DNA of 27,525 bases from Pyrinomonadaceae bacterium (lineage in GTDB: Bacteria > Acidobacteriota > Blastocatellia > Pyrinomonadales > Pyrinomonadaceae), in assembly GCA_035639355.1 (NCBI GenBank), contig DASQYE010000182.1:1-27525 (forward strand), read 5' to 3'. A program made the translations under genes and the position numbers. Shown in pieces: positions 4,612 to 27,525 of this stretch. The notes below the pieces were generated by a model. That model saw nothing but the letters and a program-made list of their open reading frames with translations, was not told the origin of the DNA and did not search any database. Each line of letters starts with the position of its first letter. Position 1 is the first letter of the stretch.

Positions 4612-4628
4612 AAGAGCAAAAAATCCCC

Positions 4629-4940
4629 TTACTCGCCCGAAGGGTTTCCCCACAGGCGACTCAGCCATCCGCCGCCTTCGCGCTTCGTCAGTTGTTCCAG
4701 CTCGCCCGCGTCCAACCATACTCCGCCGCATTTCTCGCAGCGATCTACCTGCACCTCTTCAAAAGAGATTTCTTTGAGCGTGCCGTCGCACTTGGGACAC
4801 CGGACGGCGGAGGCGGCCGTCTCTCGCGCCTGTTGTTCGGAGGCCATCTGCGCGCGCATCTTTTCTATAGCCTCCTGCTCTTTGCGCCGAAAGTAGTCAT
4901 TCTCAAGAGCTTTTTTACGATCATCCAAAGGGTTCGACAT
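4629..4940 (-). CDS. zf-TFIIB-type zinc-ribbon protein with charged helical N-terminus
   Basis: CPKC...[17 protein letters not shown] is the zf-TFIIB signature. GAGGAAGG RBS upstream; stop is 17 nt before the hutU start. Confidence 0.85.
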
Positions 4941-5060
4941 ACGTATCCTTCCTCTATCGCGTGTGATGATGCTTTACGGGCCCGCACTCACAGACACGCC
5001 GGGAGGGCGAAAAGCTTCCAGCGCCGGACGGGGCGTGATTTCTTTGAAGGATAATTAATA

Positions 5061-5097
5061 GCAGAAAAGAGGGCAAAGCGCACCGGCAGGCGCGCTC
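5061..5097 (-). terminator. Possible intrinsic terminator/attenuator hairpin after hutH
   Basis: On the minus strand GAGCGCGC-ctgccg-GTGCGCTT pairs (two G-U) and is followed by TGCCCTCTTTTC; the U-tract is not adjacent to the stem. Confidence 0.3.
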
Positions 5098-5106
5098 TCC
5101 TGACGC

Positions 5107-6606: not shown

Positions 6607-6662
6607 AAAAAAGGTAATCGACAGCCAGTATTGGTTTTTACTGGCCGGCTGATCGCTCAATA

Positions 6663-7628: not shown

Positions 7629-7761
7629 CTCGTCAGGCGTAAAGTCGTCTCCTCCCTTGCCGCGATCAAAAGGACGGCCACGCGCGCGCCAACCCGCAGG
7701 CCGAAGCTGATAATAACACGCGCGCCTCCCTAACGGGGAGGTGGTGATGTGATTTGTCTCT

Positions 7762-8805: not shown

Positions 8806-8932
8806 AATTTTACACACCTCGATCGATGTAGTTTCGCCCGCGCCGGGTAGTGTCCCCGCCGCCAAAGCGCATACAAAACGGACGCGCCAAAGCCAGGGTC
8901 TAAGTTACAGCCCCGTTTGAAAGGCGCGCAAC

Positions 8933-8968
8933 AGAGAGAGAGAGAGAAAAGCGTGCGCTCTCTTCCCC
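8933..8968 (-). terminator. Hairpin plus (CT)n pyrimidine tract downstream of the small ORF; includes (AG)7 microsatellite
   Basis: Minus strand GAGAGC-gcac-GCTTTT followed by CTCTCTCTCTCTCT. Confidence 0.35.
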
Positions 8969-8996
8969 GCTGGCGATAGAAGAATCGTCCGTGCCG

Positions 8997-9230
8997 CTAG
9001 CGACTGACCAGTCCCTTCTTGATATTGCGCTGCCAGGCTTCATAATTCCTGATCCGCCGCTTGGCCTGCTTGCGGGTCAGGTTCAGCTTCACCGCGACAT
9101 AATCAATGCGTGCAGTTCGATCCTTCTTCTTATCATAAGGGTCTCCCGATGCTTGCAGGAAGAATTCGTAAGCTCGTGCCCACTCGTCTTTGATTTCCGC
9201 TGTTGCCTGCTTTCCGCGCAGTTCCGGCAT
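8997..9230 (-). CDS. Small basic hypothetical protein (77 aa), possible helix-turn-helix
   Basis: GAGG/GAAGG upstream of ATG; non-overlapping position; IDYVAVKLNLTRKQAKRRIRNYE has HTH-like spacing. Confidence 0.65.
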   Translation of the reverse strand: MPELRGKQATAEIKDEWARAYEFFLQASGDPYDKKKDRTARIDYVAVKLNLTRKQAKRRIRNYEAWQRNIKKGLVSR

Positions 9231-9318
9231 ACCTTCTCGTCACCTCTGCAAATGAATAGATTCAAAATGGTGGGAATCGCGAACTAAGACCGTAAGAGCA
9301 AATCCTCGTAGAGCCTCA

Positions 9319-9458
9319 GGTGGGAGTTCAAGCGCGCCCGCGCCACATCTACCAGCTTACTACCGACCCGGCACGGCGCGCCAACGCTCACCATAATGTA
9401 CTAGCTCTTCGGAGTTTGGCAAATCAGCCGGAGGCAAAACAGCACGGCGCTTGATACC
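9319..9458. ncRNA. Candidate structured non-coding RNA (rod-like with central bubble, possibly 6S-like); strand uncertain
   Basis: Nested helices 9328-9335/9447-9454, 9368-9372/9427-9431, 9380-9384/9416-9420 and 9386-9389/9412-9415; cUUCGg tetraloop at 9407-9412 on +. Lies in an intergenic gap with no convincing ORF. Confidence 0.35.
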
Positions 9459-9459
9459 A

Positions 9460-9503
9460 AAGAGCCCATTGCTTGACGGCCAAGAGAGCATTGCTTGACA
9501 GCT
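9460..9503 (+). repeat. Imperfect 22-nt tandem duplication containing two TTGAC boxes
   Basis: aagagcccattgcttgacggcc (9460-9481) and aagagagcattgcttgacagct (9482-9503), 18/22 identical. Confidence 0.8.
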
Positions 9504-10101: not shown

Positions 10102-10191
<90 letters not shown>

Positions 10192-10201
10192 TTTCTCTTT
10201 C

Positions 10202-10229
10202 AACGTCAATTCTCTAAATGATTGACGTT
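10202..10229. other. 9-bp perfect inverted repeat just downstream of the tRNA (terminator or integrase-associated site)
   Basis: aacgtcaat-N10-attgacgtt. Confidence 0.5.
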
Positions 10230-10240
10230 CTCTTCGCTCC

Positions 10241-10936
10241 TCACGCCCCCTGCGCAACTTGGCGTAGAGTTGGCGTAGCTGAAATCAGGAGCTTACCTTT
10301 TTCGAGGCTATTGACGGCATCTCTCAACCTCTGTGGGACGCCGTGCGCATAGCCACGCGTAACTTTAGTATTGCGTGTGTCGCCCGGCGTGGTTGAATGG
10401 CCTAAGAGATCAGCGATGTCGTACTCATGGACGTTTGCCGCCCTGAGCCTCGTGGCAAAGGTGTGCCGGAGGCCATGGAAATGGAAATCGCTGAGTCCGG
10501 CAGCTTCGACCGCTCGTTCAAAACAGACCATCAACTGACGGCGCTTCCTTCCTGTGCGCTTCGGGTCAAAGATAAGCTCGTCGTCGGGCGCGTCCTGCCG
10601 CAGGCGCTTGAGGATTTCAAGCGCCCGGACAGTCAAAGGTATAAGACGAGGTTTATCGTTCTTGGTTTTCATGACGAAGATGTGCTGGGCAATCTCGTCT
10701 ACGTCTGCCTAATGAGCATTAAGTAGTTCACCCAGCCTCATCCCAACCTCTAGGTCTAACTCAGCGAGCGCAACCAAGTGCTCGCCGTACACAGCCAGAG
10801 CCTTCATCAGTCGCCCCTCTTCATTGTCCGAATCCTGATTTAAGTAGCGCTGTCTGGGCTCGGGCTCTCTGAGGCGTTTGACTTGCCACGTTATTCCCGC
10901 TCCGGCGTCAACAACAGTGTTTAGACTAGAACAACT
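10241..10936 (-). pseudogene. Tyrosine recombinase/integrase pseudogene: catalytic domain with in-frame TAG, N-terminal domains missing
   Basis: Reading upstream of the track ORF gives VKRLREPEPRQRYL...EEGRLMKAL...HLVALAELDLEVGMRLGELLNAH*ADVD...MKTKNDKPR, then HGLRHTFATRL, LLGH, GYAH. TAG at 10709-10711 sits at the usual Trp; the frame closes with a stop at 10937-10939. Confidence 0.88.
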
Positions 10937-11892: not shown

Positions 11893-14800
11893 TTAAGGGC
11901 GTCCGGTAGCCCACTTGATCGCGGCATCGAATAGATTCCCCCCATTGCTGTTGAAGGTCGCAGCCGTAGTGTCAAACATAAACAGGCCGACACGCCGGGC
12001 AGGAGCAACCAATCCGGGCATTGCCGCCGACTTATTATAACCGAACACGACTATACGGCTGGTATCGCTCGCCAGGGTGGCGACCGAGGATGCATTAGCG
12101 TTGGGCTTTCCCCAGGTAAATGTGCCGGACGCAGTGACCACCGCTACTGTACCTGATAACCCGGCGGCCATCTGATGAGCAGCATTAGTAATCTTTACCT
12201 GTGTCTGGCCGGTGGTCGTACCGAAGTTGCTGGAGGTCTTGGTGGTCATTCCCATGTTATAAAACAGGCCGCTTTCCCAGAGAACAACCGGTACTGTGAC
12301 ATCACGGAACTTGGTGCCGACGGCCGTCGGCGTAACCGTTGAAGAGATGACCACCACCGCCTTACCGTTAGCATCCGCACTCGTCGCCGTGCCGTCTTTG
12401 ACTGTGACTATATAATTTAAAGCTTCGAGACGAGCCTTAATGGCGCTATCGCTACTGTTCAGCGTTGTCGAGCCCGCGACGAGTAACGCCGGCGAGGTGA
12501 CCTTAATATCGGTAGAGCCGGATGTGGTCGTCGCGCCTCCGTTGTCTGTGGCAATCGCCGTCAACGAATAATTGCCAATGCCAACCGCCGTCCAGGTGAA
12601 GCTGTATTGGCCCGGGCCTGTCGCCGCGCCCGCACCGACGTAAGAGCCGTTGGCAAAGAACTCGACCTTACTGATGCTTCCATCCGCGTCGCTGGCTGCA
12701 GACGTGAGAGTGACACTGGCCGGGGCGCTGTACTGTGTGCCGCTCGCCGGTCCCGTCAGGCTTACAGAAGGCGGCGTATTGACCGTGATGTTGATTGGGC
12801 TTGAAGTGGTAGTCGCCTTGTTATTGTCGGTGGCGATGGCGGTCAATGTGTAATTCCCCCCTGGCGCATTGTTCCAGATAAAACTGTGCTGATAAGCGCC
12901 GACCACGGCGCTCGTGCCGATCAGCGCTCCGTTGGCATAGAACTCTACCTTGCTGATCGAGCCATCCACGTCTGTGGCGTTAGCCTTAAGAGTGATGCTG
13001 CTGCTGGGAGATGAATAGAACGCTCCCTGAGTGGGGCTCGTTAAGCTCACCAGAGGCAGGTCATTGACGACGATATTGACCGGCACGGATGTCGTCGTCA
13101 CTCCGGCGGCGTCCGTCGCCACGGCAGTCAACAGGTAATTACCTCCAGGCGCATTGTTCCAGGCAAAATTGTACTGGTTCTGGCCCGCAGGCACTCCCGT
13201 ACCGATCAGCGTTCCGTTGGCATAGAACTCTACCTTGCTGATACTCCCACTGCTGTCGCTCGCATTGGCACTGATCGTGACGTTCGCGGGCCTCTGGAAG
13301 ACCTGCTTCATCGTCGGATTGATAATGCTGACGTTTGCCAATCCGTTCACGACGATGTTTGCGGCAACCGAGACGTTTGTCTTACCGAGATTGTCCGTCG
13401 CGACGGCGATCAGGGAATGTTTGCCGAAAGCCACGCTGTTCCAACTAAAGCTGTATTGGTTCGTGCCCGTCAAAGTGCCGGTTCCGGCCAACTCTCCATT
13501 ATCGAAGAATTCGACTTTACTGATGCTTCCATCCGCATCGCTCGCGCTGGCATTAACGGTGATGCTCGCCGGGCCTGTAAACATATTTCCAGTTGACGGG
13601 CTAGTAATACTGACGGTTGGAGCCAGATTCGGGTCCGGCAGCAGCGTTGTGTTTTCAGTCGCAGAGTTGTTCGTCAAATCAGCATCGCTTTCGTTGGCCC
13701 TGACGTTAGCTGTGTTGATAATGACTTTTCCTCCCGTCGGAATAGGCTCTCCCCCCTCCGTGGGTTTGACGATAATGGTGACGGCGGCGCTCGCGCCAGC
13801 ATTCAGCGCGTCCAGCTTGCAGACGACATCTCCGTCCGCCTCCGCGCATGTCCCCTGGCTGGCGGTCGCCGAAACGAATTCGGTGTTAGGCGGAAGGCCG
13901 TCCGTGAGATTTATTCCGGTCGCAGGCTGTGGGCCGCTGTTAGTTATATTGAGCGTGTAAGTCAGGTCGCTGCCCGCCACGACCTGGTTGGGCGAATCGC
14001 TGCTGGTGATGCTTAGCCCTGCGGCCGCGCCGGAAGGCGGAGGCCCGGTCAATGATGCGACGACAAATTGGCCCAGCAGATTGACCCTGGCGCTAATCGT
14101 CTTGCTGGCAAAGTCAGGGCCTTGCGGGTCTGGCGAGAGGATTGTGCGATCCGCCCAGATCACCGCGCCAGGATCAAACGGGTCGGGCTCCGCATGAAAG
14201 ATTCGGAGGTTATTGAAGACCGTCTGGTCGGTGACGGATGCAACGCTAAAGGTGACGGTATCCGGCCCCGATATTTGGGCCTCAGTTTCCGTATGGTAGC
14301 TGAGATTGTTGTACGTCGTGTATCCGGTCGGCAAGGGGCCGACGATGCTTGCATCGAAGGCGGCGACAGTCGTCGGGCCGTCGGTGTACGTGTTGGTCGC
14401 CAGGATTGAGATGAGCCCATCTTGCTCCAGTGTGAGCGAGGAGGGCGACGAGGATGTGGCAGGGCCGCTTCGCATCTGAGAGGCGAGGCCGTTGTTCCCC
14501 CCGTACAATAGCTTACTCCCATTAGAGGAGCTGAAGAAGCTACCGAAGCCGAAGAAGCTGTCAACGATTTGCGAGCCGGTAGCCGAGTACCACAAGACTG
14601 TATCTTCGGGGGCAAAGTTCCTGTAAACCTGTAGCGGATTTCTTCCGGCGATCGAAGTGGTGCGAATGAATTCCGGTGATTGCAAGAGGTCTTTAAAATC
14701 ATTCGGATCCTCTTCTCCCGCTCGATAACGGACCACCCCGAAGTCAAAGTCCTGTTTTGACGAAGGGGAAATTTCCAAAATCTTTCCATTGTTGAAGGCT

Positions 14801-16464
14801 TCCCCCTGAATCGCGCCCCAGCGCCAGTGGCTATGGACACACTCCGGGCAGCCAGGCCCGACGAAATGCAGGCTCGGCTCAGTATCGGGACTTAACCCGG
14901 GCTCCTCGACGATTCCCAGATTAGTCTGATGAATGTTGTCCCACTTATTCGTCGCCTGGCCGCCGGTGACCGCACGGTCAGACCACTCGACGTAGAGCGG
15001 ATTGAACTTCTTTTCAAAACCCAGACTGCCGACGATCCCTCCTTCCGTCGGATGGCATAGGCCGGGATAATCACAATCCTTAAAGAGGCCGACCGTGTTA
15101 TCAGGGATGCCGTCAACGCTGAGATGCTGGCGCTGTGCGATATTGAGATTAACGATTTCTCCCTGTCCGTAAAAGTGATACTTGACAATCGGCTTCCAGC
15201 GCGAGCACGGTAAGGTGGCGCTGGGCTCGCAGCCGAAGCCCTCGTTATAGAATTCGTATCTTTGAGTAATATGCAGGCAGCTCGTCGCCGTCGCCGGAAT
15301 CTGATCTATCAGGTAGGTGGCCTCGACGACCAGTTTTTCGTTATCACTAAAGGTGTAATAGCTGATGAGGCGGCTGCGCGCCGAGGAATCACTGCTGTCG
15401 GGTTTGAGCTCGCCGCGTTGTTTCGCAAACAGGCTCGTTTGCAAGGTGAAGTAAGGGACGCTGATCCTCTCGGCCATGTAGCGCTGGCCCAATTTCACAT
15501 TGCGAAGCACAAGGCCGTCGTTATCGCTGACTTCGACCTGCATGCTCCATTGCTTATTCGGGTCTGTTCCGGGGCCCGTCACCGTCTGAGGCGCGGGCCT
15601 GGCTATCACTTCACAGTCACAGCGCTTCCCATCCTCTCCAGAGATGTCTGCCCTTGCCCAGGGGGCGACTATGGCGCTCATTCCTTCACCCGTGACCTCG
15701 TCTATATCAACCCCGTACATGCTGGCCCCGCTCCACAGAGGGCCGCTGATGAGCGCTCCCGAATTGATGTCCAGTAGAGCGACCTGGTTGACACGCAAGG
15801 CCTTTCTCCCGCCCAGTGAGGCGGGTCTCTCGATGGCCAGGCTTCTATTCTCTTCCGAGACTGCGCCGTAAGGAAATTTGTTAAGGATACCTCCGCCACT
15901 GGCGTCCAGCTTATAAATCCAGGGAGAATTAGTGCCGTCAAGTCTTTGCCCGAAGGAGATTGCATAAAGCACGTTTTCCTCCGGGTCATAATCCATTGCT
16001 CCGATACCTTTCCCTGTAAAACCGTACTGGTCATTCATCGTCGGGTCGGGAATTTTGGCGAGATCGCCTCCGCCCATGGCAGGAATCTTATGAATGAACC
16101 CATCGGAACAGCCCCCGTTGGAGAGTATGGAAATCCATATATTTCCGTCTGTGGGATCATGAGCGACGCCTCCTCCGAACCGAAGAGTTCCGCCGCACGG
16201 CAATGAGTAATTCCCACCGGCGTCAAACACTTTCAGCACGGCATTGTTCGTCCTGTCGAAGACTTCCATGGAAGTGCTGTCTCGGTTATAGACCCACATC
16301 CGCCCGTTGCGCGGGGGCGTTGATTGTTGCAAAAAGTATGGTTTAGCAGTAGGAGTTATGTTCGCCGGAGAGGCTGCAAAACCGTTCGGCAGGGCAGCCC
16401 AACTCAAGATAATAATCAGCCAAAGATAGGACGTAAGCTTTGCAAGGCTCGGTGAAGATTTCAT
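11893..16464 (-). CDS. Large secreted modular protein: signal peptide, partial beta-propeller, unassigned Cys/His-rich domain, ZU5-like domain, DUF11, 4x bacterial Ig-like (Big_7-type) repeats, C-terminal alpha/beta domain
   Basis: 1523-aa ORF; AAGGAG RBS; hydrophobic N-terminus; DUF11 motif LSITSSDSPNQVVAGSDLTYTLNITNSGP; four SDxDGSISKVEF(F/Y)xNG-type repeats. Confidence 0.85.
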   Translation of the reverse strand: MKSSPSLAKLTSYLWLIIILSWAALPNGFAASPANITPTAKPYFLQQSTPPRNGRMWVYNRDSTSMEVFDRTNNAVLKVFDAGGNYSLPCGGTLRFGGGVAHDPTDGNIWISILSNGGCSDGFIHKIPAMGGGDLAKIPDPTMNDQYGFTGKGIGAMDYDPEENVLYAISFGQRLDGTNSPWIYKLDASGGGILNKFPYGAVSEENRSLAIERPASLGGRKALRVNQVALLDINSGALISGPLWSGASMYGVDIDEVTGEGMSAIVAPWARADISGEDGKRCDCEVIARPAPQTVTGPGTDPNKQWSMQVEVSDNDGLVLRNVKLGQRYMAERISVPYFTLQTSLFAKQRGELKPDSSDSSARSRLISYYTFSDNEKLVVEATYLIDQIPATATSCLHITQRYEFYNEGFGCEPSATLPCSRWKPIVKYHFYGQGEIVNLNIAQRQHLSVDGIPDNTVGLFKDCDYPGLCHPTEGGIVGSLGFEKKFNPLYVEWSDRAVTGGQATNKWDNIHQTNLGIVEEPGLSPDTEPSLHFVGPGCPECVHSHWRWGAIQGEAFNNGKILEISPSSKQDFDFGVVRYRAGEEDPNDFKDLLQSPEFIRTTSIAGRNPLQVYRNFAPEDTVLWYSATGSQIVDSFFGFGSFFSSSNGSKLLYGGNNGLASQMRSGPATSSSPSSLTLEQDGLISILATNTYTDGPTTVAAFDASIVGPLPTGYTTYNNLSYHTETEAQISGPDTVTFSVASVTDQTVFNNLRIFHAEPDPFDPGAVIWADRTILSPDPQGPDFASKTISARVNLLGQFVVASLTGPPPSGAAAGLSITSSDSPNQVVAGSDLTYTLNITNSGPQPATGINLTDGLPPNTEFVSATASQGTCAEADGDVVCKLDALNAGASAAVTIIVKPTEGGEPIPTGGKVIINTANVRANESDADLTNNSATENTTLLPDPNLAPTVSITSPSTGNMFTGPASITVNASASDADGSISKVEFFDNGELAGTGTLTGTNQYSFSWNSVAFGKHSLIAVATDNLGKTNVSVAANIVVNGLANVSIINPTMKQVFQRPANVTISANASDSSGSISKVEFYANGTLIGTGVPAGQNQYNFAWNNAPGGNYLLTAVATDAAGVTTTSVPVNIVVNDLPLVSLTSPTQGAFYSSPSSSITLKANATDVDGSISKVEFYANGALIGTSAVVGAYQHSFIWNNAPGGNYTLTAIATDNNKATTTSSPINITVNTPPSVSLTGPASGTQYSAPASVTLTSAASDADGSISKVEFFANGSYVGAGAATGPGQYSFTWTAVGIGNYSLTAIATDNGGATTTSGSTDIKVTSPALLVAGSTTLNSSDSAIKARLEALNYIVTVKDGTATSADANGKAVVVISSTVTPTAVGTKFRDVTVPVVLWESGLFYNMGMTTKTSSNFGTTTGQTQVKITNAAHQMAAGLSGTVAVVTASGTFTWGKPNANASSVATLASDTSRIVVFGYNKSAAMPGLVAPARRVGLFMFDTTAATFNSNGGNLFDAAIKWATGRP
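12500..13626 (-). repeat. Four coding Ig-like repeats of about 95 aa
   Basis: 12917-12957 and 13202-13242 match at 40/41 nt (285-nt period); protein motif SISKVEF occurs four times. Confidence 0.85.
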
Positions 16465-16905
16465 TATTGCTCCTTGGGTTGCTAAGTTGAGTCTAAGCAG
16501 ATTTCCTAAAAATTCTCTACGCTAAGGATGAAAAGGTGATGATCGATTTGTGAGGCCGATGGCTTCAGTTGAGATCACACGCGCGTCAGTTCTTTAAATA
16601 TTCTCACTACGGGTGTTGGTTTAGCAGGTGCTCATAAGACTCATTGACTCTGAGATGTCGAGTATGCCTTTGGAGGAAACCTTCAAGACATTAAGAATAT
16701 TGAGGGAAAGCTCGTTAAAACCTTATCTACAGTTATCCAAATGATAACTTAATACAACTCATCCCAGCAGAAGCTCTGAAGCCGTTAGACAAGGATTTAC
16801 CAGCAGTAGTAAACCATGTGTCAACCTGTTCTTTGTTGATTAAACGGCTAACGTGAGGCCAGTCGGGATAAGGTGGCCAGTCGACGAACGCGCTTGAGCG
16901 ACGGG

Positions 16906-16934
16906 TTTATAATGTCATTGGTTTAAGATGTCAA
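16906..16934 (-). promoter_or_regulatory. Near-consensus sigma70 promoter facing the giant gene
   Basis: Minus strand TTGACA (16934-16929), 17 nt, TATAAA (16911-16906). Confidence 0.55.
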
Positions 16935-17239
16935 GGGATTTGCTGGGAATTATAGTTGCTTAGCGATAATATTTGTATACTCCTAATGGAGTGACCCGTG
17001 GTTAATAATAGGGCTGTCGAACTGTTAAGACTTCTAAATGCGAGCGCTACTGCCTGCGAAGGCTGTGTCGAGAAGATGATTGATTTAACAGTAGGAGTCG
17101 GGGGCGCTCAAATCGTAGCTGGTCAAGCCCGTACTTACAACTGTCACTCAGCGGAACCGTTCATGCCTATCACCATGAATTATAGCGTGAGTTGCTACAC
17201 GTTATTGAAGTGGTGTCGCAAGTAATACTTTACTCCGAT

Positions 17240-17447
17240 AGGCTAGCATCAAGAAGTTCCATACGGCGGAGCGAACCATCGAAGGTATTGAATCCATCAA
17301 CATGGTAAGAAAAGGTCAGATGAAAAGATTAGAGGGAAGCGATACGGTTGGTCAGGCAAAGTTTGTCTTGAGCCTCTTTCAGATCGTAGCATAAGGAAAC
17401 ACACTTTATGAGTTTTCGCGTTTCAACATAATCTTTGCAACGCAACC
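17240..17447 (+). mobile_element. IS6-family relic: transposase C-terminus plus right terminal inverted repeat
   Basis: 17251-17394 reads KKFHTAERTIEGIESINMVRKGQMKRLEGSDTVGQAKFVLSLFQIVA*, typical of the IS6 Tnp end; 17430-17447 reverse-complements to GGTTGCGTTGCAAAGATT, an IS6-type end. Confidence 0.85.
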
Positions 17448-17473
17448 CGCGATCGCGCCCTTTTCCGCCCTAG

Positions 17474-17743
17474 GAATCGCCGTCGCAAAACTTCGCGAGA
17501 CCCCTAACTACACGATCGCGAGTTTCAAGGAGGACGTCAGCCACCTACGCCCCCAAGGCGCGCCGTGCGGAGAAGGAAAAGGTTGAGCAGGTGGAATGTC
17601 TGCGCCTCCCGCTCACGGTCGAACTTGACGCGGCATTACAGGCGTTAAGCCTACAGCCTCCTTTTCAGGGTAAGGCTATCGAGGAGATCGCCGTCTCGGT
17701 AATCCTCGACGCACACCTACAAGGCTCGGTCGCCGCCGCCTAG
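17474..17743 (+). pseudogene. Headless open frame, probable 3' remnant of an unknown gene
   Basis: Stop-to-stop frame with no ATG, reading ...APKARRAEKEKVEQVECLRLPLTVELDAALQALSLQPPFQGKAIEEIAVSVILDAHLQGSVAAA*; protein-like composition; starts just after the IS6 end. Confidence 0.35.
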
Positions 17744-17901
17744 CAGGTGGTTGCGATTTCCATCCCAGCGGAGGATGGTGGCATGATCAAGCACCGGCGG
17801 TCGTGGCGCGCGGCTAAGAAGGATAAGCAGGACGGGCTTGTTGCTATACTTCCGCTTCAATAATCCAGTGTGCCAAGCATGAACATCGTCGCCCACGCGG
17901 G

Positions 17902-18066
17902 GATCTGTGCATCTGGAAAGACCGTCTCTATCGCTTCGGGAAAGCCTTTGAGGGGGGCCATCCACTCAGGCGATAAAGATGTCCCGCACTTCCCGATTCT
18001 TCAACTCCGTGACAATCTGGAGCCAGAACGCGCCCCCTCGGCCTGCGCAACCCACAGACCCAGAAC
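17902..18066 (-). mobile_element. IS256-family transposase internal fragment (degenerate)
   Basis: VLGLWVAQAEGA / FWLQIVTELKNREVRDIFIA*VDG / LKGFPEAIETVFPDAQI: the IS256 DDE region with two frameshifts and one stop. Confidence 0.88.
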
Positions 18067-18194
18067 TCGGCCTTCATTTTCGTGTGGCGGGGTCGCATAG
18101 TCAAACTGATCAACATAACTTTGCGCAAATATTCAAATGGAATGAATAAATGCGTATGAATTATGCAGCCTCTTCTGAATAAATATGCAAAGCC

Positions 18195-18261
18195 GATTGG
18201 GGCATAGGCTTGATCTGCATCTTGACCTTTTTTATCTCGAGCTAATCTTTGCAACAGAGCT
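18195..18261 (+). mobile_element. Second IS6-type right end (solo remnant)
   Basis: 18244-18260 reverse-complements to GCTCTGTTGCAAAGATT; shares taatctttgcaac with the 17429-17441 end; a degenerate G-I-(A)-A-stop-like sequence ends at 18213. Confidence 0.65.
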
Positions 18262-18285
18262 GCTGGTTCTAATTCTCTCGAATCG

Positions 18286-20361
18286 CTACACAGCGAATGA
18301 AATTACTTGGCTTGAGTTTGTTTTCTTGCTTGTCTTGTTAGAGGCAATCTCAAAGGGATAAACGTCTTCGATAGCAGTGCGCAGCAATTCTGCGACGCTC
18401 CATGCCTGTGCGATCGAGCCGCGCGGTGTGTGCGGCTCGTCTCCGTCAAATATCTCAGAGATTTGACCGAGTCCCGCCTCGCTCAAGTGTGCCCGGAAAT
18501 TCGCAAGCCACCACGCCGCCCGCTCGCGGCTTTCTTCTGAGTGGCCGTGTGCTTTGGTATAAGCCGTGATAAATGGCCCCATCAGCCAGGCCCAGACTGC
18601 ACCCTGATGGTAGACCGCGTCGCGGCTTGAAGGGCTACCTTCATATCGCCCGCAGTACTGAGGATCACTCGGCGCAAGACTTCGTAGTCCATAAGATGTA
18701 AGCAGTTCGCGCTCGACCACATCAATAACGCGAAGTGCCTTCTCCGCTGCGAGCATCGAATTCGTTAGACTGATCGACAGGATTTGATTGGGCCGAATAG
18801 AGGCGTCGCGCTCCTCTCCATCCACACAGTCGTAGAGGCAGCCCGCCGCTTCGTTCCAGAACAGACGATTAAAGCTCTCACACGCTTTTGCAGCCAGCTC
18901 ACCATATTCCCTATGTCTCGCCTCATCACCAAATTGTTCGGCCAATTGCTGCATGATACAAAGCGCGTTGTACCAGAGTGCCTGAATCTCAACGGGCTTG
19001 CCTTGCCGGGGCGTGATCACACGCCCATCAACTCTGGCGTCCATCCAGGTGAGTTGCACACCCTCTTCGCCGGACGCCAGGAGTCCGTCCCCGTCCACGT
19101 GAATGTTGTAGCGCGTCCCGCGCACATGCCAATCTATGATGTCTATCAACACTTCGTAGAGATTTTCTCGAACGAATTCGTAGTCGTTCGTGTATTCGAC
19201 GAGCGCGCGAACAGCTTCAAAAAACCAGAGCGTGGCATCCACGGTGTTGTACTCAGGCGCTTCTCCCGCATCGGGGAACCGGTTCGGCAGCATGCCGCAG
19301 CTTACGAAGCGTGCGAACTCTAACAAAATGCCGCGCGCCACATCACTGTGGCCAGTCACCAGTGTCAATCCGGGCAGGGCGATCATTGTGTCGCGCCCCC
19401 AATCCGAGAACCAGTGATACCCGGCAATAACCGTTTTGCAATTTTCACGCGCGACGATGAATTGATCTGCCGCCACGGCGAGCGTGCGCATCAGTTCGTC
19501 GTCGAAACCGGATGCCTCCTTTAGAGTCTCTCGCCTCAGGATTTCTGCCCGACGGTATTCATCAGCGCGGGAGATCTCCCGCCTTTCTGTTGACGCGATG
19601 ACGCTCAGGCGCGAGGCACTCTTCGGATCGAATTTCAGCACGAACGGGCTGAATAAATCTTCCGTAAAATCAAGACCGCGCTCTTGCTCCGCCCTGTACT
19701 CAAAGTTGCGATACCAGTATCCACTCTGCTCAACCTCGGACGTATCGTGGGCGAAGTATAACCTGGGCAGGTTTTCATACGGCGCAACGCTCGTGAGACG
19801 GCCCTCCATCCGGACTTGAGCATTCAACGCGCCATTTTCGTGCGTCGTGCCGTGATAGTCACGAAAGGCTATGAGCGGGCGCACCTCGAAAAGGATGAGG
19901 GATGAGGGCAATGTAATGAAGTCAGGCTCATCACCTTTTGTTTGATTCTCAGGATGCGGGAGTTGAAACTCGTATTGAATGACCGTGCTGTTTTCGCCCT
20001 GAGCCATAAAGACGGACTTCTCGATTCTGATTCCTTCGATCTCATAGGTAAAGACTGGAAAGGGGTCTAGCCGAAATCCTATCTGGTAATTGTATCCCTG
20101 TGGATGAACGACGCCCGGATACTGGTTGGCTGAGAGTTCATACCTCCGACCGTCAATGATGAGTGTCTCTTCAAGCTTGGAGAGCATGACCAGACGCCCG
20201 ACGGGCGGCCTTGTCGCCGCAGTCAGCAACCCGTGGTAGCGCCGCGTATTGAGACCTATCATCGTGGAGGAAGCGAAACCGCCGAGGCCGTTTGTCTCCA
20301 GCCATTCGCGCGAGAGCGTCTCATTTAGGTCAGTGCATATTCCTCGATCAAAACTTATCAT
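18286..20361 (-). CDS. Glycogen debranching enzyme, archaeal type (amylo-alpha-1,6-glucosidase)
   Basis: REWLETNGLGG, TRRYHGLL, DWGRDTMIALPG, YNTVDATLWF, QLTWMD, RPNQI, YHQG and QAWSVAE motifs. Confidence 0.92.
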   Translation of the reverse strand: MISFDRGICTDLNETLSREWLETNGLGGFASSTMIGLNTRRYHGLLTAATRPPVGRLVMLSKLEETLIIDGRRYELSANQYPGVVHPQGYNYQIGFRLDPFPVFTYEIEGIRIEKSVFMAQGENSTVIQYEFQLPHPENQTKGDEPDFITLPSSLILFEVRPLIAFRDYHGTTHENGALNAQVRMEGRLTSVAPYENLPRLYFAHDTSEVEQSGYWYRNFEYRAEQERGLDFTEDLFSPFVLKFDPKSASRLSVIASTERREISRADEYRRAEILRRETLKEASGFDDELMRTLAVAADQFIVARENCKTVIAGYHWFSDWGRDTMIALPGLTLVTGHSDVARGILLEFARFVSCGMLPNRFPDAGEAPEYNTVDATLWFFEAVRALVEYTNDYEFVRENLYEVLIDIIDWHVRGTRYNIHVDGDGLLASGEEGVQLTWMDARVDGRVITPRQGKPVEIQALWYNALCIMQQLAEQFGDEARHREYGELAAKACESFNRLFWNEAAGCLYDCVDGEERDASIRPNQILSISLTNSMLAAEKALRVIDVVERELLTSYGLRSLAPSDPQYCGRYEGSPSSRDAVYHQGAVWAWLMGPFITAYTKAHGHSEESRERAAWWLANFRAHLSEAGLGQISEIFDGDEPHTPRGSIAQAWSVAELLRTAIEDVYPFEIASNKTSKKTNSSQVISFAV

Positions 20362-20459
20362 GTCTTTGCTTCCTCTCTTTATGTAGCCCGCGCGCTGCCG
20401 GTTTGAGCTGGCTCAAGACTATTCTCTTCATAAGACTTCGGTGCTTTCTCAAGAGCGCC

Positions 20460-21569
20460 TTAATTCAGGAAGTCCGCGACTTCACAAAAGACTTTGATTG
20501 CGCCTTTCGCGCTCGTGAGCTTGTCGAATAATTCCCGATAATTTTCCAGGCCCTTGACCGGGTGGGTCAGAAGACGCGCGAGCCACCCCGGATATTCGGC
20601 CTCCGATTGCGCCATATCACGAACGCCCATCTCGAAATACTCACGATTGGCGTTGACCGTCCCGACCATCACCTTATTGCCGAGCACGAATTCGAGATTG
20701 ATTTTGTCCGCAGGAACTTCCACGCGGCGGTCGCCGCCAGTGACGGACGAGAGCACGAGCACGCCGTTTTTACCGAGAGCCTGCATGGCTTCAAAGACAA
20801 TCGGCGAAAAGCCCGTCGCCTCGAAGATGATGTCAAAAGGCCCGTACGCCCGCGCGCCTTCGAGAAGCGGTAAATCCCTGGTTGATTCGTAGCGCGCGCC
20901 GACGGCCTCTATCAGCTCCGCGTTGAGATTCGGTTTAGGATCGAGCGCGAAGGTCGTCACCTCAAGGCCGCGCAAGCGCAGGACGAGCGTGGCGAGCAGA
21001 CCTATGGTGCCGGCTCCCATGACCGCCGCACGCTTAGGCTTCCACACGCGCAGTCGGCGCTGTATCTCATAAGCCTGCGCGATGCCCTTTTCGACGACGG
21101 TTGTCGGTTCGAGCAGCACTCCGACTTCTTTTAACCCTTTCGGGACTTTCACGATGAACTCCGCGTCGTCAACGTAATACTCGGAGAGATACCCGTGGCG
21201 CAGGTTGATGCCCCGCTCGAAATAGGTGTCATCGGTGGTCATGTCGTTCGTGCCGATGAGGTCATAAATGCTCGTGCCGGGGCGGCGCACCGTTGCGACC
21301 ACGTAATCGCCGGGGCGCAATTCGGTCACATTTGCTCCAACGGCCTCCACCTGGCCGAAACTTTCATGGCCCGTAACGAGAAAGTCGTATCCTTCAGGAG
21401 CCGCTCCGTACTCCGCGGCATTGATCTCCTTATCAGTGCCGTCCACGCCGACGCGCAGAACCCGAACTAGCACCCCGCGCCCGTTCGGCACATCGTTGAT
21501 AGAAGGTCGCGGCATCTCCACCAGATGCACGCTATTCGGTTTTCCGGGAAATACTGCTATTGCTTTCAT
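20460..21569 (-). CDS. gdh: Zn-dependent glucose 1-dehydrogenase, archaeal type (MDR superfamily)
   Basis: [40 protein letters not shown] and [13 protein letters not shown] motifs. Confidence 0.85.
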
Positions 21570-21649
21570 GATGAGCTTTCTCCAAATCTAAAGTTATTAG
21601 TGAAGCGAGGCTATTGCCGGCGCATAGAGACGAGCGCCGCCCCTTCTCT

Positions 21650-24298
<2,649 letters not shown>

Positions 24299-24317
24299 GG
24301 CTTTTTGTCGCTCCCGA

Positions 24318-24563
24318 TCAAAGTATGCCGTTATAGGCAAATGAAGCGCGGCGTATGAACCTCGTGGGGCGCTCCTGATTCGTCGCAATGGGATTACGCA
24401 GCGCAGTTTTGCCGCACTCAGGACAGACATGCACCCCCTCAAGCGCGCCGCCGAGATCGACATCAATCTCTTCAGGCACATCCGTTGAGCAATCAATTTT
24501 ATCTGCGTGATGGTTCATCTGTGCGCCGCAATCGGGACAGAGCATTTTGTTTGTTTTCTTCAT
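24318..24563 (-). CDS. Small Zn-ribbon-like protein (CxxC...CxxC)
   Basis: [14 protein letters not shown]...HVCPECG; AGAGG RBS; fills the gap between the VOC and glucosidase genes. Confidence 0.75.
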
Positions 24564-24657
24564 AAGAACCTCTTTCGCGTGACAGGTGACATGAAAAGGA
24601 ATTTTCTTTGCTCCTCACACATCACTGTAGTTCAATGTTCCCCCGCCCGTCTGCAAA

Positions 24658-25791
24658 TTATCTTTCGACTAGCTGCATCACATGGCCGTCGGGGTCGCGC
24701 ACCAAAAAGCCCCGCGCAAATCCGAACTGCTGGCGGTCAACATCGACTATGCCTGATGAGACGAATGAGTATCTACGGGAGAGCAGGCTTTGGGCTGCGG
24801 CGTCGGCGCGCGCGACTAAGAGCCGCGTCTGCCAGTGGGCCAGGTCGTTCGCTCGCGCGTCCTCTGGGATAGGCCGCCCGCTGCGCGGCGCCATGTATTC
24901 CAGAAACTCAATGCCGGGGCCGCCGCCCGGCGCTCTCATGCTGGTGATGCGAAGACGCGCGCCGAAGACGTTATTCAAGTGCTCCTGCTCCGTGCCGTAG
25001 TTCTCGCTTTCGCCAGCGACCCTCATCCCCAGCGTGTCGCGGTAAAACTTTAGGCTCGCTTCCGTATCGCCCACCACAATCGCCGTGTGGTCGATGCCGA
25101 GGAAAAGCTTGTCAGTAGCCTGGTGCCACTTCGCGTCGCCTTTGCCTTCGGGGAACTGAAGTATTTCGAGCGAGTGGCCGTCCGGGTCGCGGAAGTAGAA
25201 GGCTTTGATGCCGGCGGCGTTCCTGTTCCAATCGGGAAGCCGCTGCGGGCCGCTCGATGCGTGCTCAACTTTGTTCTTTCTCAACCACGCGTAGGCGCGA
25301 TCCATGTCGCTCGTGATGATCGCAATGTGTTGGAACCATCGGTCATTGCTACGGGAATCGACGGGGACGGGGCGGCCTCTCGGCGCGAGGTATTCGGTCA
25401 GCTCAATAGACTCACCGCCGAGTCTCATTCGCACGACTCTCATCCTCAAACCGAACACGCCCTGTAGGCGCTCGTAATTTTCCCCGGCCACTTCAACGTC
25501 GGAAACTTTTTCGAACGAGAGGACGCGAGAATAGAAATCCACGGCCCCGTCCATGTCTGAAACGGTCATGCCCACTGCGTCTACCCGCTCGACGGCTGAC
25601 CCGGAAATCCCTTCAACATCCAGGGAAGGGGCGCGCAGGCCGAAACTTGTGGCGGCCTGCGCGCGGGCGGGCGGGAAAGGCTGAGCTTTGGCAGGCGGAA
25701 CAAAGACGCTCAGCGCGAATAAGAGCCAGAGAATTATCCAACCGACGGGGATGTTCAGTTGATTTCTTTCTCGTCCCTCTTGCTCGTTCAT
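24658..25791 (-). CDS. Two-domain VOC (glyoxalase/bleomycin-resistance fold) protein with N-terminal signal peptide
   Basis: WFQHIAI, FRDPDGHSLEI, IDHTAIVV, IEFLEY and VRDPDGHVMQL motifs; hydrophobic N-terminus ending AKA-Q; ATGA overlap with the GMC stop. Confidence 0.88.
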   Translation of the reverse strand: MNEQEGRERNQLNIPVGWIILWLLFALSVFVPPAKAQPFPPARAQAATSFGLRAPSLDVEGISGSAVERVDAVGMTVSDMDGAVDFYSRVLSFEKVSDVEVAGENYERLQGVFGLRMRVVRMRLGGESIELTEYLAPRGRPVPVDSRSNDRWFQHIAIITSDMDRAYAWLRKNKVEHASSGPQRLPDWNRNAAGIKAFYFRDPDGHSLEILQFPEGKGDAKWHQATDKLFLGIDHTAIVVGDTEASLKFYRDTLGMRVAGESENYGTEQEHLNNVFGARLRITSMRAPGGGPGIEFLEYMAPRSGRPIPEDARANDLAHWQTRLLVARADAAAQSLLSRRYSFVSSGIVDVDRQQFGFARGFLVRDPDGHVMQLVER

Positions 25792-27359
25792 CGCAGACGC
25801 TCCTTCAGGTGGTCGGCCACGCGCAGCGCGTTAGCCATAATCGTCAAGGCAGGATTTACGGCAGCGGACGACGGGAAGAAGCTCGCATCAACTACGTAAA
25901 GGTTGTCGAGATCATGCGCTTTGCAGTTAACGTCGAGCGCGGAGGTCTTCGGGTCACTCCCGAAACGAATCGTGCCGTTCTGGTGTGCGACGCCTGCCAA
26001 GGGAATACGCTGGCCGACGAAGAGGTTGCGTGCGAAGAGTCCGACGTGACAGTCGTGACCGTGTACAGCGCATTTCGTCTGCTGCTGCATCAGGCTTTGC
26101 AGCTTCTTCTGAAGACGCTGATGCCCCTCTTCGTTGTTCGGCTTATAAGAGAGAACGATGTTGCCCTCACGGTCGAGCGTCACGCGGTTATTGGGGGCCG
26201 GCAAATCCTCGCTCGTTAACCAAAAGTCGAGCGAGTGTTTCGCCATCAAATCAAGTGTGAAGCCGGGAGCAATCTTTGGCGCTCCGGCGCTCAAGGTGAC
26301 TCCATCCAGTTTTCCTACGAACGAGATGTGCCCCATAGGGTAGTCCCACTCGCGGGAGCCGAAATAGAAATCGTTCACCGCGAGAGTTTTCTGAAAGATG
26401 GTTGGATTCGGGCACTTTGAGACGGCCATCATCACGGAGTTCGTGTGCCCCATGTAGTGACGGCCTACGACACCCGAGCTGTTGGCAAGCCCGTTCGGGT
26501 GTCTGCTGTTGGCAGACCTCAGAAGCAGAGCCGCGGAGTTGATGGCGCCACAGGAGACTACCACTATGTCGCCAGTGAAATTTTCCATCTGCCCGTCGCG
26601 CTCGACCGTCACGGACCTGACGCTGCGGCCCGCCGGGTCTGTGTTCAGGCGCAGCACTTTCGAGTTGGTCAGAAGTGTCACGTTGCTATGGGTAAGGGCA
26701 GGATCGACCGCGCAGGTCTGAGCGTCCGCCTTCGCACCCACCAGGCAGGCGAAGCCGTCGCAGGTGTTGCAGCGTATGCAGGCGCTCGCCCTGGAATTCT
26801 TCTCGTCCAGCTTGATACCGAGCGGGACGTGAAAAGGTCTCAGACCCTGCCGCTCGAAGTCTTCGCTCAACTGCTGTATGCGCGGCTCGTGGCTGACGGC
26901 CATGTGCGGGTAGGGCGCGCTTGCAGGTGGCTCGGTCGGATCAACGCCTCGTTCGCCGTGAACGTGATAGAGTTCTTCGGCCTTCGTGTAGTAAGGCTCA
27001 AGCTCGTCGTAAGAGATCGGCCATGCCGGGGAGACTCCGCCGTGGTGGCGAATCTCACCGAAATCCTGCTGACGAAATCTAAAGAGCGCCGCGCCGTAGA
27101 ACTTCGTATTGCCGCCGACGTAGTAGTTCGTGTGCGGGTGCAGGTCTTTGCCTTCGCCGTCCCGCCAGGACTCTTTCGTGTTGTACCTCGCCTCGACATT
27201 CACAGCGCGCGAGTCCCAGTTCTCCTTCTCGCGCCTGACATAATCGCCTCGCTCTAAGAGCAGGATGCGCTTACCCGTATCTGCCAGGGCATACGAGAGC
27301 GTCCCCCCGCCCGCCCCCGTACCGATGATGATTACGTCGTAATGATTCGCTTGTGACAT
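25788..27359 (-). CDS. GMC-family FAD oxidoreductase (sugar dehydrogenase flavoprotein-like)
   Basis: YDVIIIGTGAGG, LERG, VGGNTKFYGA, CIRCNTCDGFAC, AHQNGT, NLYVVDASFFP and NPALT motifs. GGAGG before ATG 27359. Confidence 0.92.
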   Translation of the reverse strand: MSQANHYDVIIIGTGAGGGTLSYALADTGKRILLLERGDYVRREKENWDSRAVNVEARYNTKESWRDGEGKDLHPHTNYYVGGNTKFYGAALFRFRQQDFGEIRHHGGVSPAWPISYDELEPYYTKAEELYHVHGERGVDPTEPPASAPYPHMAVSHEPRIQQLSEDFERQGLRPFHVPLGIKLDEKNSRASACIRCNTCDGFACLVGAKADAQTCAVDPALTHSNVTLLTNSKVLRLNTDPAGRSVRSVTVERDGQMENFTGDIVVVSCGAINSAALLLRSANSRHPNGLANSSGVVGRHYMGHTNSVMMAVSKCPNPTIFQKTLAVNDFYFGSREWDYPMGHISFVGKLDGVTLSAGAPKIAPGFTLDLMAKHSLDFWLTSEDLPAPNNRVTLDREGNIVLSYKPNNEEGHQRLQKKLQSLMQQQTKCAVHGHDCHVGLFARNLFVGQRIPLAGVAHQNGTIRFGSDPKTSALDVNCKAHDLDNLYVVDASFFPSSAAVNPALTIMANALRVADHLKERLR

Positions 27360-27423
27360 TCCGAGTCCTCCTTCGAGAGTCATTAGCCGGAACGACGGGC
27401 GCGCGCATTCCTGTTAAGAAGCG

Positions 27424-27525
27424 TTACGATTGCTGCCTGGAAAGCGGCGCGGTCGCGAAGTTGGCGTTGAAGCGGCGACACCAGATCGTCACCGCGCGGT
27501 ATTTAGAGAGATCAACATCCGCCGG
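27424..27525 (-). CDS. DM13-domain protein, C-terminal end only (runs off the window)
   Basis: Minus frame reads PADVDLSKYRAVTIWCRRFNANFATAPLSRQQS*, matching the DM13 C-terminal pattern (D-L-S-K-Y-x-x-V-x-I-W-C-x-x-F-x-x-x-F-x-x-A-x-L). Not in the ORF track. Confidence 0.8.
   Translation of the reverse strand, partial: PADVDLSKYRAVTIWCRRFNANFATAPLSRQQS

Follow-up and report, generated by a model that had tools for sequence, protein, structure and literature searches.

Gene content of the window

The window analysed here is the whole 27,525-nt stretch of DNA, which is the entire contig C182 of a metagenome-assembled genome (MAG) of a Pyrinomonadaceae bacterium comprising 793 contigs and 4.46 Mb and estimated to be 92.8% complete. 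Positions 18286–27525 hold seven open reading frames (ORFs), all co-oriented on the minus strand, in which homologues of sugar-releasing and glucose-oxidising enzymes stand together with a GMC-family flavoprotein, a VOC-family protein and the end of a DM13 gene. This cluster is the subject of our analysis. Below, G000 denotes the source MAG, G001 and similar numbers denote relative genomes, and L numbers denote loci from a wider genome scan. From the contig end inwards, the seven genes are:

27424..27525 (coding 27427-27525, stop 27424-27426), minus strand: C-terminal part of a DM13 protein, 33 codons + stop (PF10517)
25788..27359, minus strand: GMC-family FAD dehydrogenase (GMC), 523 aa (GMC_oxred_N + GMC_oxred_C)
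24658..25791, minus strand: two-domain (four-module) VOC metalloenzyme-like protein (VOC), predicted exported, 377 aa (two Glyoxalase domains)
24318..24563, minus strand: 81-aa protein with two CxxC pairs, zinc-ribbon or rubredoxin-like (Zn-ribbon; no family above cut-off)
21650..24298, minus strand: GH63-type two-domain alpha-glucosidase-like protein (GH63), predicted cytoplasmic, 882 aa (MGH1-like_GH + Glyco_hydro_63)
20460..21569, minus strand: archaeal-type glucose 1-dehydrogenase (Gdh) of the medium-chain dehydrogenase/reductase (MDR) family, 369 aa (Glu_dehyd_C + ADH_N)
18286..20361, minus strand: archaeal-type glycogen debranching enzyme homologue (GDE), 691 aa (GDE_N + GDE_C)

Recomputing the ORFs gave intergenic gaps of 64, -4 (an ATGA overlap), 94, 19, 80 and 98 nt. 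These values are identical to those in the initial annotation, an earlier note made from the letters of this DNA, which had likewise reported seven co-oriented genes. They presuppose that GMC starts at ATG 27359, which sits 7 nt after GGAGGA (ATG 27383 is the alternative), and that GH63 starts at ATG 24298, although its reading frame stays open to 24496. The 4-nt overlap is that of the VOC start with the GMC stop. The family labels given earlier to the cluster genes are upheld by Pfam and NCBIfam matches, with the 81-aa protein remaining below every cut-off. A correction is needed for DM13, of which the window holds just the last 33 residues, the gene being cut by the contig end.

The gene set in other genomes

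Among 41 genomes compared (the source MAG counted, and with partial matches in the unpublished G019 and G023 included in the counts, on which no conclusion rests), GMC orthologues of 66–81% identity occur in 10. GH63 accompanies them in 10 of 10 and Gdh (at least 82% identity) in 9 of 10. G001, G014, G026, G029 and G030 share the gene order GMC-VOC-(FMN_red-Zn-ribbon)-GH63-Gdh, and G013 has it without VOC. Six relatives, among them G009, G015, G016, G020 and G022, contain GH63-Gdh pairs and no GMC orthologue. Because these pairs occur without GMC-VOC, the hydrolase and redox halves of the cluster are separable modules.

A scan of species-representative genomes yielded at least 589 GMC relatives, and the best-scoring 80 loci were analysed. 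In these best 80, GMC retains 74–81% identity across phyla; the MAG labels include Acidobacteriota, Gemmatimonadota, Rokubacteria/Methylomirabilota, Verrucomicrobiota, Eremiobacterota, Actinomycetota, Myxococcota, Planctomycetota, Bacteroidota, Dadabacteria and KSB1. The wider families are large, with at least 8000 relatives of GMC and VOC among the matches listed in a database search. Neighbours were counted in the 34 loci that have at least 8 kb on either side of GMC, which include representatives of Gemmatimonadota, Eremiobacterota, Bacteroidota and Actinomycetota: VOC was found in 33, GH63 in 28, Gdh in 26, a channel of the major intrinsic protein (MIP) family in 24, GDE in 20, an SMP30/gluconolactonase-like protein (SMP30) in 14, DM13 and an HbpS-cupin fusion in 12 each, Zn-ribbon in 8 and FMN_red in 7. 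In 29 of the 34 loci, VOC and at least one of GH63 and Gdh are encoded no more than 10 kb from the GMC orthologue. The initial annotation had allowed that the two halves might not co-occur elsewhere; they are in fact linked across phyla. Four loci were scored without GH63, Gdh and GDE, and in two of these GH63 lies merely beyond the flank limit. The set recurs with a different arrangement, GH63-GDE-MIP-GMC-VOC-...-Gdh, in Gemmatimonadota and Thermoanaerobaculia.

Fuller copies carry additional genes. An S8 peptidase-CBM48 protein, with a glycogen-binding module, and NDH-2 recur in L075 (Pyrinomonadaceae) and L056 (Gemmatimonadaceae). In L075, NDH-2 lies between Gdh and GDE, and the locus also encodes a sugar nucleotidyltransferase, MOSC/YiiM, an MFS transporter and DUF417. 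The presence of CBM48 and GDE speaks for a glycogen-like glucan, and the position of NDH-2 next to Gdh suggests that NADH passes its electrons straight to quinone.

Orthologues of the 81-aa protein, 39–60% identical, are present in 8 of the 34 loci, mostly after FMN_red (and MOSC) genes; the window retains the Zn-ribbon gene without these usual predecessors. An orthologue of the NADPH-dependent FMN reductase, 81% identical, is encoded in the same MAG away from the module (G000:C479:5136-5699), where it adjoins genes for a small VOC protein and a TonB-dependent receptor.

Sugar enzymes and the GMC flavoprotein

GDE matches GDE_N (1.5e-73) and GDE_C (8.9e-130) and scores 494.7 bits against TIGR01561, above the cut-off of 364.15, for a family whose status is only that of a 'hypothetical equivalog'. 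It aligns with the C-terminal glucosidase part of the eukaryotic debranching enzymes 8zeq and 7eim. Gdh matches Glu_dehyd_C (2.5e-50) as well as ADH_N, and aligns over residues 1-358 with the Haloferax glucose dehydrogenase 2b5v (E 2e-61) and also with its Sulfolobus counterpart 2cd9 (E 9e-40). The segments TGHES and GAGTIG, which correspond to the GHE motif and the GxGxxG nucleotide fold, place it as a predicted member of this family.

The GH63-like protein matches MGH1-like_GH (3.3e-22) and Glyco_hydro_63 (2.6e-8). A sequence search against solved structures gave no match for it, and a fold search was used instead. The model (pLDDT 90.3) predicts an N-terminal beta-sandwich and an (alpha/alpha)6 barrel. 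The top Foldseek matches are processing alpha-glucosidase I (7t6w and 4j5t, E ~1e-25, TMt 0.63), followed by E. coli YgjK, and the matches to 7t6w, 4j5t, 5mhf and 3d3i span both domains, as a predicted GH63 architecture should. Candidates for the catalytic Asp/Glu pair are D421, E424 and E851, which are invariant in an alignment of 28 homologues, and D432, which is almost so. The family comprises 5480 clusters at 50% identity with E<=1e-30.

GMC matches GMC_oxred_N (3.5e-12) and GMC_oxred_C (5.4e-18), and its FAD motif DVIIIGTGAGGG, at residues 8-19, fits the GxGxxG fold. The N-terminus enters the FAD fold directly, with no signal peptide. The best solved relatives are the alpha subunit of an FAD-glucose dehydrogenase (6a2u_B, E 9e-36) and the large subunit of a fructose dehydrogenase (7w2j_A). 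Residues C194, C200 and C205 align to C212, C218 and C222 of 6a2u_B, which we take to be ligands of its 3Fe-4S cluster. C194, C197, C200 and C205 are invariant in 10 orthologues, C197 being an extra fourth Cys. By its sequence, GMC is of the Fe-S dehydrogenase type and not of the oxidase type. No match to the Tat-signal small subunit PF13618 was found in the MAG and no CxxCH haem motif in any module protein, and GMC is therefore probably not exported.

Predicted export

The products appear to be divided between two compartments. In the source genome, the maximal 15-residue hydropathy within the first 60 residues is 2.0-2.7 in VOC, DM13, SMP30, the HbpS-cupin fusion and a Spondin-like protein, compared to at most 1.2 in GMC, GH63, Gdh, GDE and Zn-ribbon. 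We predict a cytoplasmic set (GMC, GH63, Gdh and GDE) and an envelope set (VOC, DM13, SMP30 and HbpS-cupin). The VOC N-terminus runs from a charged through a hydrophobic to a small-residue segment before the conserved core, and does so in 61 orthologues from all phyla. Twin-arginine RRxFL signals occur in a few VOC orthologues, most clearly in the Bryobacterales-type L032, L097 and L106 (MHRRTFLIL, MLRRTFLSL and MLRRAFLTL), and the VOC signals of the Pyrinomonadaceae appear to be Sec-type. Use of the twin-arginine (Tat) route, with GMC perhaps exported alongside, is possible in some lineages.

VOC contains two Glyoxalase domains (1.1e-29). Its model (pLDDT 94.6) predicts a four-module fold that comes nearest, at 14-16% identity, to maize two-domain glyoxalase I (5d7z), human GLOD4 (3zi1) and the hydroquinone dioxygenase PcpA (4huz). 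Invariant residues, numbered on the truncated sequence, are H96, E150, H176 and E236. Neither the fold nor these residues name a substrate, and a search of the ESM Atlas returned unnamed VOC clusters only. The DM13 remnant matches positions 78-105 of the 105-position profile PF10517 (E 1.5e-8) and is 88% identical to the end of a 163-aa DM13 protein of the congener G001. DM13 orthologues begin with an N-terminal hydrophobic anchor, which is also present in the DM13 N-terminus encoded on contig C406 of the source genome. The MIP channel is nearest to plant NIP2;1 and archaeal AqpM, and not to AqpZ.

Extension onto other contigs and a shared promoter motif

Two further contigs of the MAG appear to continue the cluster. 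C406 encodes the N-terminal 47 codons of DM13 (C406:2-142), DUF417, SMP30 and the C-terminal half of the HbpS-cupin fusion. C561 encodes the other HbpS half, a Spondin_N-like protein, the MIP channel and, at the contig edge, the C-terminus of a zf-HC2 anti-sigma factor. C561:1-102 and C406:3138-3239 overlap within the HbpS-cupin gene, and the 102 nt that they share are only 94% identical, which suggests that strain heterogeneity or the presence of two copies broke the assembly. C406 and C182 share no overlap, and both end within the DM13 gene. Put together, the genes probably run in the order anti-sigma, promoter, MIP, Spondin-like, HbpS-cupin, SMP30, DUF417, promoter, DM13, GMC, VOC, Zn-ribbon, GH63, Gdh and GDE. 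The source genome has the combination of MIP-GMC-VOC with GH63-Gdh, GH63 and Gdh lying within the window and MIP on C561, linked via C406.

An unbiased count of 5-mer/4-mer pairs over 96 upstream regions gave a single outstanding bipartite motif, TGTAAGGA-N15/16-CGACTA(A/T) or CGACTCA. It has the form of an ECF-type promoter and marks loci of the Pyrinomonadaceae type, where it stands before the MIP, DM13-GMC, NTP-transferase-Gdh and S8-CBM48 units. It has 25 matches in the 80 loci (1.26 Mb), 22 of them intergenic and on the cluster strand. It stands upstream of MIP in 5 loci, of DM13 in 5, of an NTP-transferase gene before Gdh in 6, of S8 peptidase-CBM48 in 3 and of GH63 in 1. Since L070, L075, L085 and L090 each hold 3-4 copies before different genes, shared descent of orthologous spacers cannot explain the motif. 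The full motif occurs three times in the 4.46 Mb source genome, where we estimate that about 0.2 matches would arise by chance: upstream of MIP (C561:2415), of DM13 (C406:459) and of an MsrP/YedY-like gene (C486:1358).

The third of these sites is unlinked to the module. A copy of the form TGTAAGG-N-CGACTAA lies ~100 nt upstream of the MsrP/YedY-like gene (C486:1358-2300), whose product has the twin-arginine signal RRLFMRGLGL; this suggests that periplasmic methionine-sulfoxide repair is under this sigma factor as well. In the Terriglobia-type loci L050, L072, L088 and L100, the sequence TGTCACTTCTGCAG, ~30-60 nt upstream of MIP, replaces the motif, and the Terriglobia-type module may be wired to another regulator.

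Adjoining genes for an extracytoplasmic function (ECF) sigma factor and a zf-HC2 anti-sigma factor are found in G001 and several loci, the ECF sigma gene being adjacent in 9 of 34. The motif is absent from the window, whose intergenic gaps also lack sigma-70-like and terminator-like sites. A scan of 16.4-27.5 kb for sigma-70 promoters and terminators gave counts at or below shuffled expectation, a result that fits a single unit and proves nothing. A SigH-type GGAAT-N18-GTT was not seen by eye in the window gaps. As the gaps hold none of these sites, the simplest arrangement is a single unit, and the seven window genes are probably transcribed together from the promoter upstream of DM13.

Mobility and the surroundings of the cluster

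A probable island boundary inside the window is marked by two features:

10102..10191, plus strand: tRNA-Ser(CGA), probable island boundary (ARAGORN, Rfam)
10241..10672, minus strand: truncated tyrosine-integrase gene next to the tRNA (Phage_integrase 7.7e-16, profile positions 61-158/172)

Similarity to five congeners ends at 10194-10208, at the 3' end of the tRNA-Ser gene, or, in two of them, at 10445, inside the integrase gene, and G+C drops to 0.46-0.53 at 10-12 kb. The site is a probable integration hot spot. When the 3' end of tRNA-Ser was sought elsewhere as a direct repeat marking the far border, only 16-nt matches at chance level appeared, and no att repeat was found within the window. 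In G001, the module copy and the tRNA-Ser locus are on different contigs.

GMC, GH63 and Gdh have no match in 6 of the 7 other genomes of the genus, which are 83-97% complete. The phyla intermingle in a FastTree phylogeny of 45 GH63 sequences, in which supported branches need at least two Gemmatimonadota origins, and the Verrucomicrobiota, Planctomycetota, Bacteroidota and Actinomycetota sequences nest within Acidobacteriota. Mantel tests show correlated pairwise distances for GMC, VOC, GH63, Gdh, GDE and MIP (p<=0.001), with r=0.82 for GH63-VOC and r=0.80 for GH63-Gdh. These correlations record a shared history in which co-transfer and vertical descent are not separated. The best reading is that the module is accessory and horizontally mobile, and widespread among soil bacteria from many phyla.

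The integrase remnant is separated from the sugar cluster by a gene for a secreted 1523-aa protein (11893-16464) with DUF11 and four Big_7 Ig-like repeats (DNA period 282-285 nt), the N-terminal ~800 aa of which have no assignment. Directly downstream of GDE, 16465-18285 is a 1.8 kb stretch with G+C of 0.47-0.53 that holds short ORFs only (<=108 aa) and has no Rfam match. On the other side of the tRNA gene, the stretch 7730-9480, with a GH5-like gene at 7762-8865 (Cellulase family, E 2e-6), is absent from the syntenic G003, G004 and G006, where the DUF2270 gene directly meets the segment preceding tRNA-Ser. The remaining part of the window encodes a PilZ protein (2-844), an acyltransferase and an inositol monophosphatase, followed by the histidine utilisation genes for urocanase (2929-4731) and histidine ammonia-lyase (5107-6660) and by the DUF2270 membrane protein, the stretch from urocanase onwards spanning 2929-7628.

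Discussion

The seven genes are best explained as the downstream end of a larger accessory island, which would comprise at least 13 genes. We think it somewhat more probable than the contrary that this island is a mobile module under stress-sigma control, in which glucose freed from a reserve alpha-glucan or alpha-glucoside is oxidised without phosphorylation, and which is joined to a triad of MIP, Fe-S GMC and exported VOC. In the proposed mechanism, a stress or dormancy signal would act through the ECF sigma/zf-HC2 anti-sigma pair, and the cytoplasmic arm would then mobilise the reserve alpha-glucan or alpha-glucoside. GDE would trim branch stubs and the GH63 enzyme would cut alpha-glucosidic bonds, after which Gdh could convert free glucose to gluconolactone with no ATP spent and NAD(P)H gained; in fuller copies the adjacent NDH-2 may hand the Gdh electrons to quinone. 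GMC could serve as a second dehydrogenase for a sugar, a polyol or gluconate, either cytoplasmic or membrane-associated, feeding single electrons to an acceptor. The NIP-like MIP would pass a small neutral solute, and the exported VOC, DM13, SMP30 and HbpS-cupin proteins would act in the envelope.

Several observations weigh against this proposal. We infer the joins C561-C406-C182, of which one shows an overlap of only 94% identity and the other none. An orthologue of the ECF sigma factor was not found in the MAG, where the gene is not assembled and only the anti-sigma end is present on C561. The SMP30 lactonase-like protein is predicted to be exported and Gdh to be cytoplasmic, so that the lactone-to-gluconate step would be split by the membrane. 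No gluconokinase of either family scored above cut-off in the MAG, leaving the fate of gluconate unexplained. Because we know of no GH63 enzyme that acts on alpha-1,4 glucan, the true substrate of the GH63 protein may be a small alpha-glucoside. The 80 loci are top scorers of the larger set, two thirds of them Acidobacteriota, and are non-independent relatives; they come mostly from MAGs, in which bins and labels can err (e.g. 'Heliomicrobium' and 'Clostridia'). We also considered an exit of gluconolactone through the MIP channel to a periplasmic SMP30, and judged it unlikely from known MIP pore sizes.

A rival explanation is compatible-solute turnover. GH63 would hydrolyse a glucosyl-polyol or glucosyl-glycerate osmolyte, or a kojibiose/nigerose-type disaccharide, after osmotic or desiccation stress, MIP would release water, glycerol or another small polyol, and the polyol would be oxidised by GMC, the glucose by Gdh. 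The small bacterial GH63 enzymes so far characterised have glucosyl- or mannosylglycerate as substrates, and in Pfam the GH63 protein matches the mannosylglycerate-hydrolase-like GH domain. The MIP, nearest to NIP-type solute channels, is also the most constant upstream neighbour of GMC, and many Pyrinomonadaceae loci have a sugar nucleotidyltransferase between GH63 and Gdh. However, GDE, the CBM48 protease and the night induction of comparable genes alongside glycogen genes in Synechococcus elongatus (see below) favour glucan, the GH63 fold is closest to the large alpha-glucosidase I and YgjK and not to the 400-aa MGH type, and an osmolyte synthase was not seen in the loci examined, and we consider this explanation unlikely. 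It is also conceivable, if rather improbable, that the genes form a co-regulated stress regulon with no metabolic connection, brought together by one ECF sigma factor and block movement, with unrelated tasks in sugar metabolism and envelope redox. The different predicted compartments would suit such an arrangement, as would the genomes with GH63-Gdh and no GMC-VOC, the separate promoter copies before the units and the same motif before the unlinked MsrP-like envelope repair gene. Against it, the linkage outlasts rearrangement of gene order across phyla although the ECF sigma gene is mostly not adjacent, GMC and VOC show translational coupling in the window, and the closest relatives have both in one predicted unit with GH63.

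The initial annotation had envisaged a single pathway, perhaps parallel to oxidation-elimination cleavage of glycosides, with keto-sugar intermediates handled by VOC. In this reading GMC would oxidise glycosides to keto-glycosides, or the hydrolase products to keto-sugars, and VOC would process them in line with the hydrolases. GMC flavoproteins of the Fe-S subfamily do oxidise sugars, and VOC stands beside GMC in 33 of 34 loci, with the 4-nt overlap here. The main argument against it comes from the predicted compartments: predicted export signals or anchors, conserved across phyla, are found on VOC and DM13 but none on GMC, GH63, Gdh or GDE, and a one-pot passage from GMC to VOC is disfavoured because the two would act on different sides of the membrane. 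The VOC fold is of the generic four-module glyoxalase I/hydroquinone dioxygenase type, at low identity. The xylose-isomerase-like TIM-barrel lyase that defines oxidation-elimination cleavage, the hydratase and the Gfo/Idh/MocA reductase are absent from the window and the annotated relatives; for the lyase, this covers the seven proteins, the extension in the source genome and the annotated genes of L014, L021, L056 and L075. We regard this pathway as very improbable. Arsenic or metalloid detoxification was considered and rejected: the labels AqpS-like MIP, ArsH-like FMN reductase and ArsI-like VOC, which we take to be those such a reading would use, leave GH63, Gdh, GDE and CBM48 as misfits, and FMN_red occurs in only 7 of 34 loci.

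Returning to the proposed stress-controlled glucan module, we can speculate further that it fuels redox reactions of the envelope from reserves. Electrons from glucan would pass via Gdh/NDH-2 and GMC to the membrane, and the membrane-anchored DM13 would relay them to VOC and HbpS-cupin, which would repair or detoxify oxidised or carbonyl-damaged envelope compounds in stress or dormancy, with the NIP-like channel passing a small neutral substrate or product. We give this scheme little credence as it stands, but if it were true it would provide the first defined function for the DM13 domain and for the exported VOC family.

The component families and the logic from glucan through glucose to gluconolactone are already known. 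Their constant linkage to a NIP-like channel, an Fe-S GMC without its usual partners, an exported double VOC and DM13, under an ECF-type promoter motif, is undescribed in the searchable literature. To our knowledge these four families have no known bacterial role, and we know of no biochemical study of any module member. The module is very common and unusually conserved, yet accessory, with a distribution that is patchy even among members of a single genus. Should the link to glucan and the control by a stress sigma factor hold true, they would be relevant to the survival of soil bacteria under starvation, drying and oxidative stress.

Comparison with known systems

The presumed regulatory part of the module resembles ECF sigma/zf-HC2 (ZAS) stress regulons in the adjacent sigma and anti-sigma genes of G001 and other loci and in the repeated bipartite promoter-like motif. 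The motif itself differs from the GGAAT...GTT of SigH/SigR, and the target set, with genes for glucan and glucose oxidation, MIP, Fe-S GMC, exported VOC and DM13, matches no characterised ECF regulon known to us.

Over its full length, Gdh belongs to the MDR glucose dehydrogenase family that also contains the enzymes of archaeal non-phosphorylative glucose oxidation in Haloferax and Sulfolobus. The cluster differs from these pathways in being bacterial, in lacking a gluconate dehydratase and a 2-keto-3-deoxygluconate (KDG) aldolase, and in that its SMP30 lactonase-like protein is predicted to be exported. The GH63-like protein shares its predicted fold (7t6w, 4j5t and 3d3i) and its Pfam GH63/MGH1-like matches with GH63 alpha-glucosidases, a group that includes alpha-glucosidase I of the endoplasmic reticulum, YgjK and the Thermus and Mycobacterium mannosyl-/glucosylglycerate hydrolases, but it is just 11-14% identical to the solved members.

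For GMC, the closest known systems are the FAD/3Fe-4S complexes of Burkholderia cepacia (FAD-glucose dehydrogenase, 6a2u) and Gluconobacter (fructose dehydrogenase, 7w2j), with which it shares a full-length catalytic subunit (E ~1e-35), three Cys and the His/Asn active-site pair. Identity to these is ~30%, there is a fourth Cys, and the module contains neither the Tat-signal hitchhiker subunit nor a CxxCH cytochrome subunit. Oxidative glycoside cleavage proceeds by C-glycoside 3-oxidase with deglycosidase or by 3-keto-glucoside routes. The cluster recalls these in having a GMC-type sugar oxidoreductase beside glycoside-processing genes, whereas it lacks the defining TIM-barrel lyase and its proposed partners fall into different predicted compartments.

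The nearest parallel is found in Synechococcus elongatus PCC 7942, where genes for a MIP, a GMC flavoprotein, a glucose 1-dehydrogenase, a putative debranching enzyme and 'malQ' (Synpcc7942_1571-1575) are co-located and induced at subjective night (PMC11889915). Its authors proposed a conversion of glycogen to gluconate and described the fate of gluconate as unknown. This was the only relevant report retrieved by literature searches on DM13+GMC+glyoxalase and on GH63+Gdh+GMC+aquaporin+debranching. The statement of the initial annotation that no characterised operon has this make-up therefore stands for the searchable literature, but the make-up is not unprecedented, as a co-expressed MIP-GMC-Gdh-debranching set has been reported.

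The likeness lies in the neighbouring and co-induced MIP, GMC, Gdh and debranching genes, with orthology taken from the annotations of that paper only. No VOC, DM13, SMP30, HbpS-cupin or ECF control is reported for the cyanobacterial genes, which are regulated by circadian output; in a control search, S. elongatus was found to encode a protein with an MGH1-like GH63 domain. If the proposed control and function are correct, they would bear also on these unexplained "glycogen to gluconate" night genes of cyanobacteria, and S. elongatus, a tractable model, together with cultured Acidobacteria makes the module directly testable.

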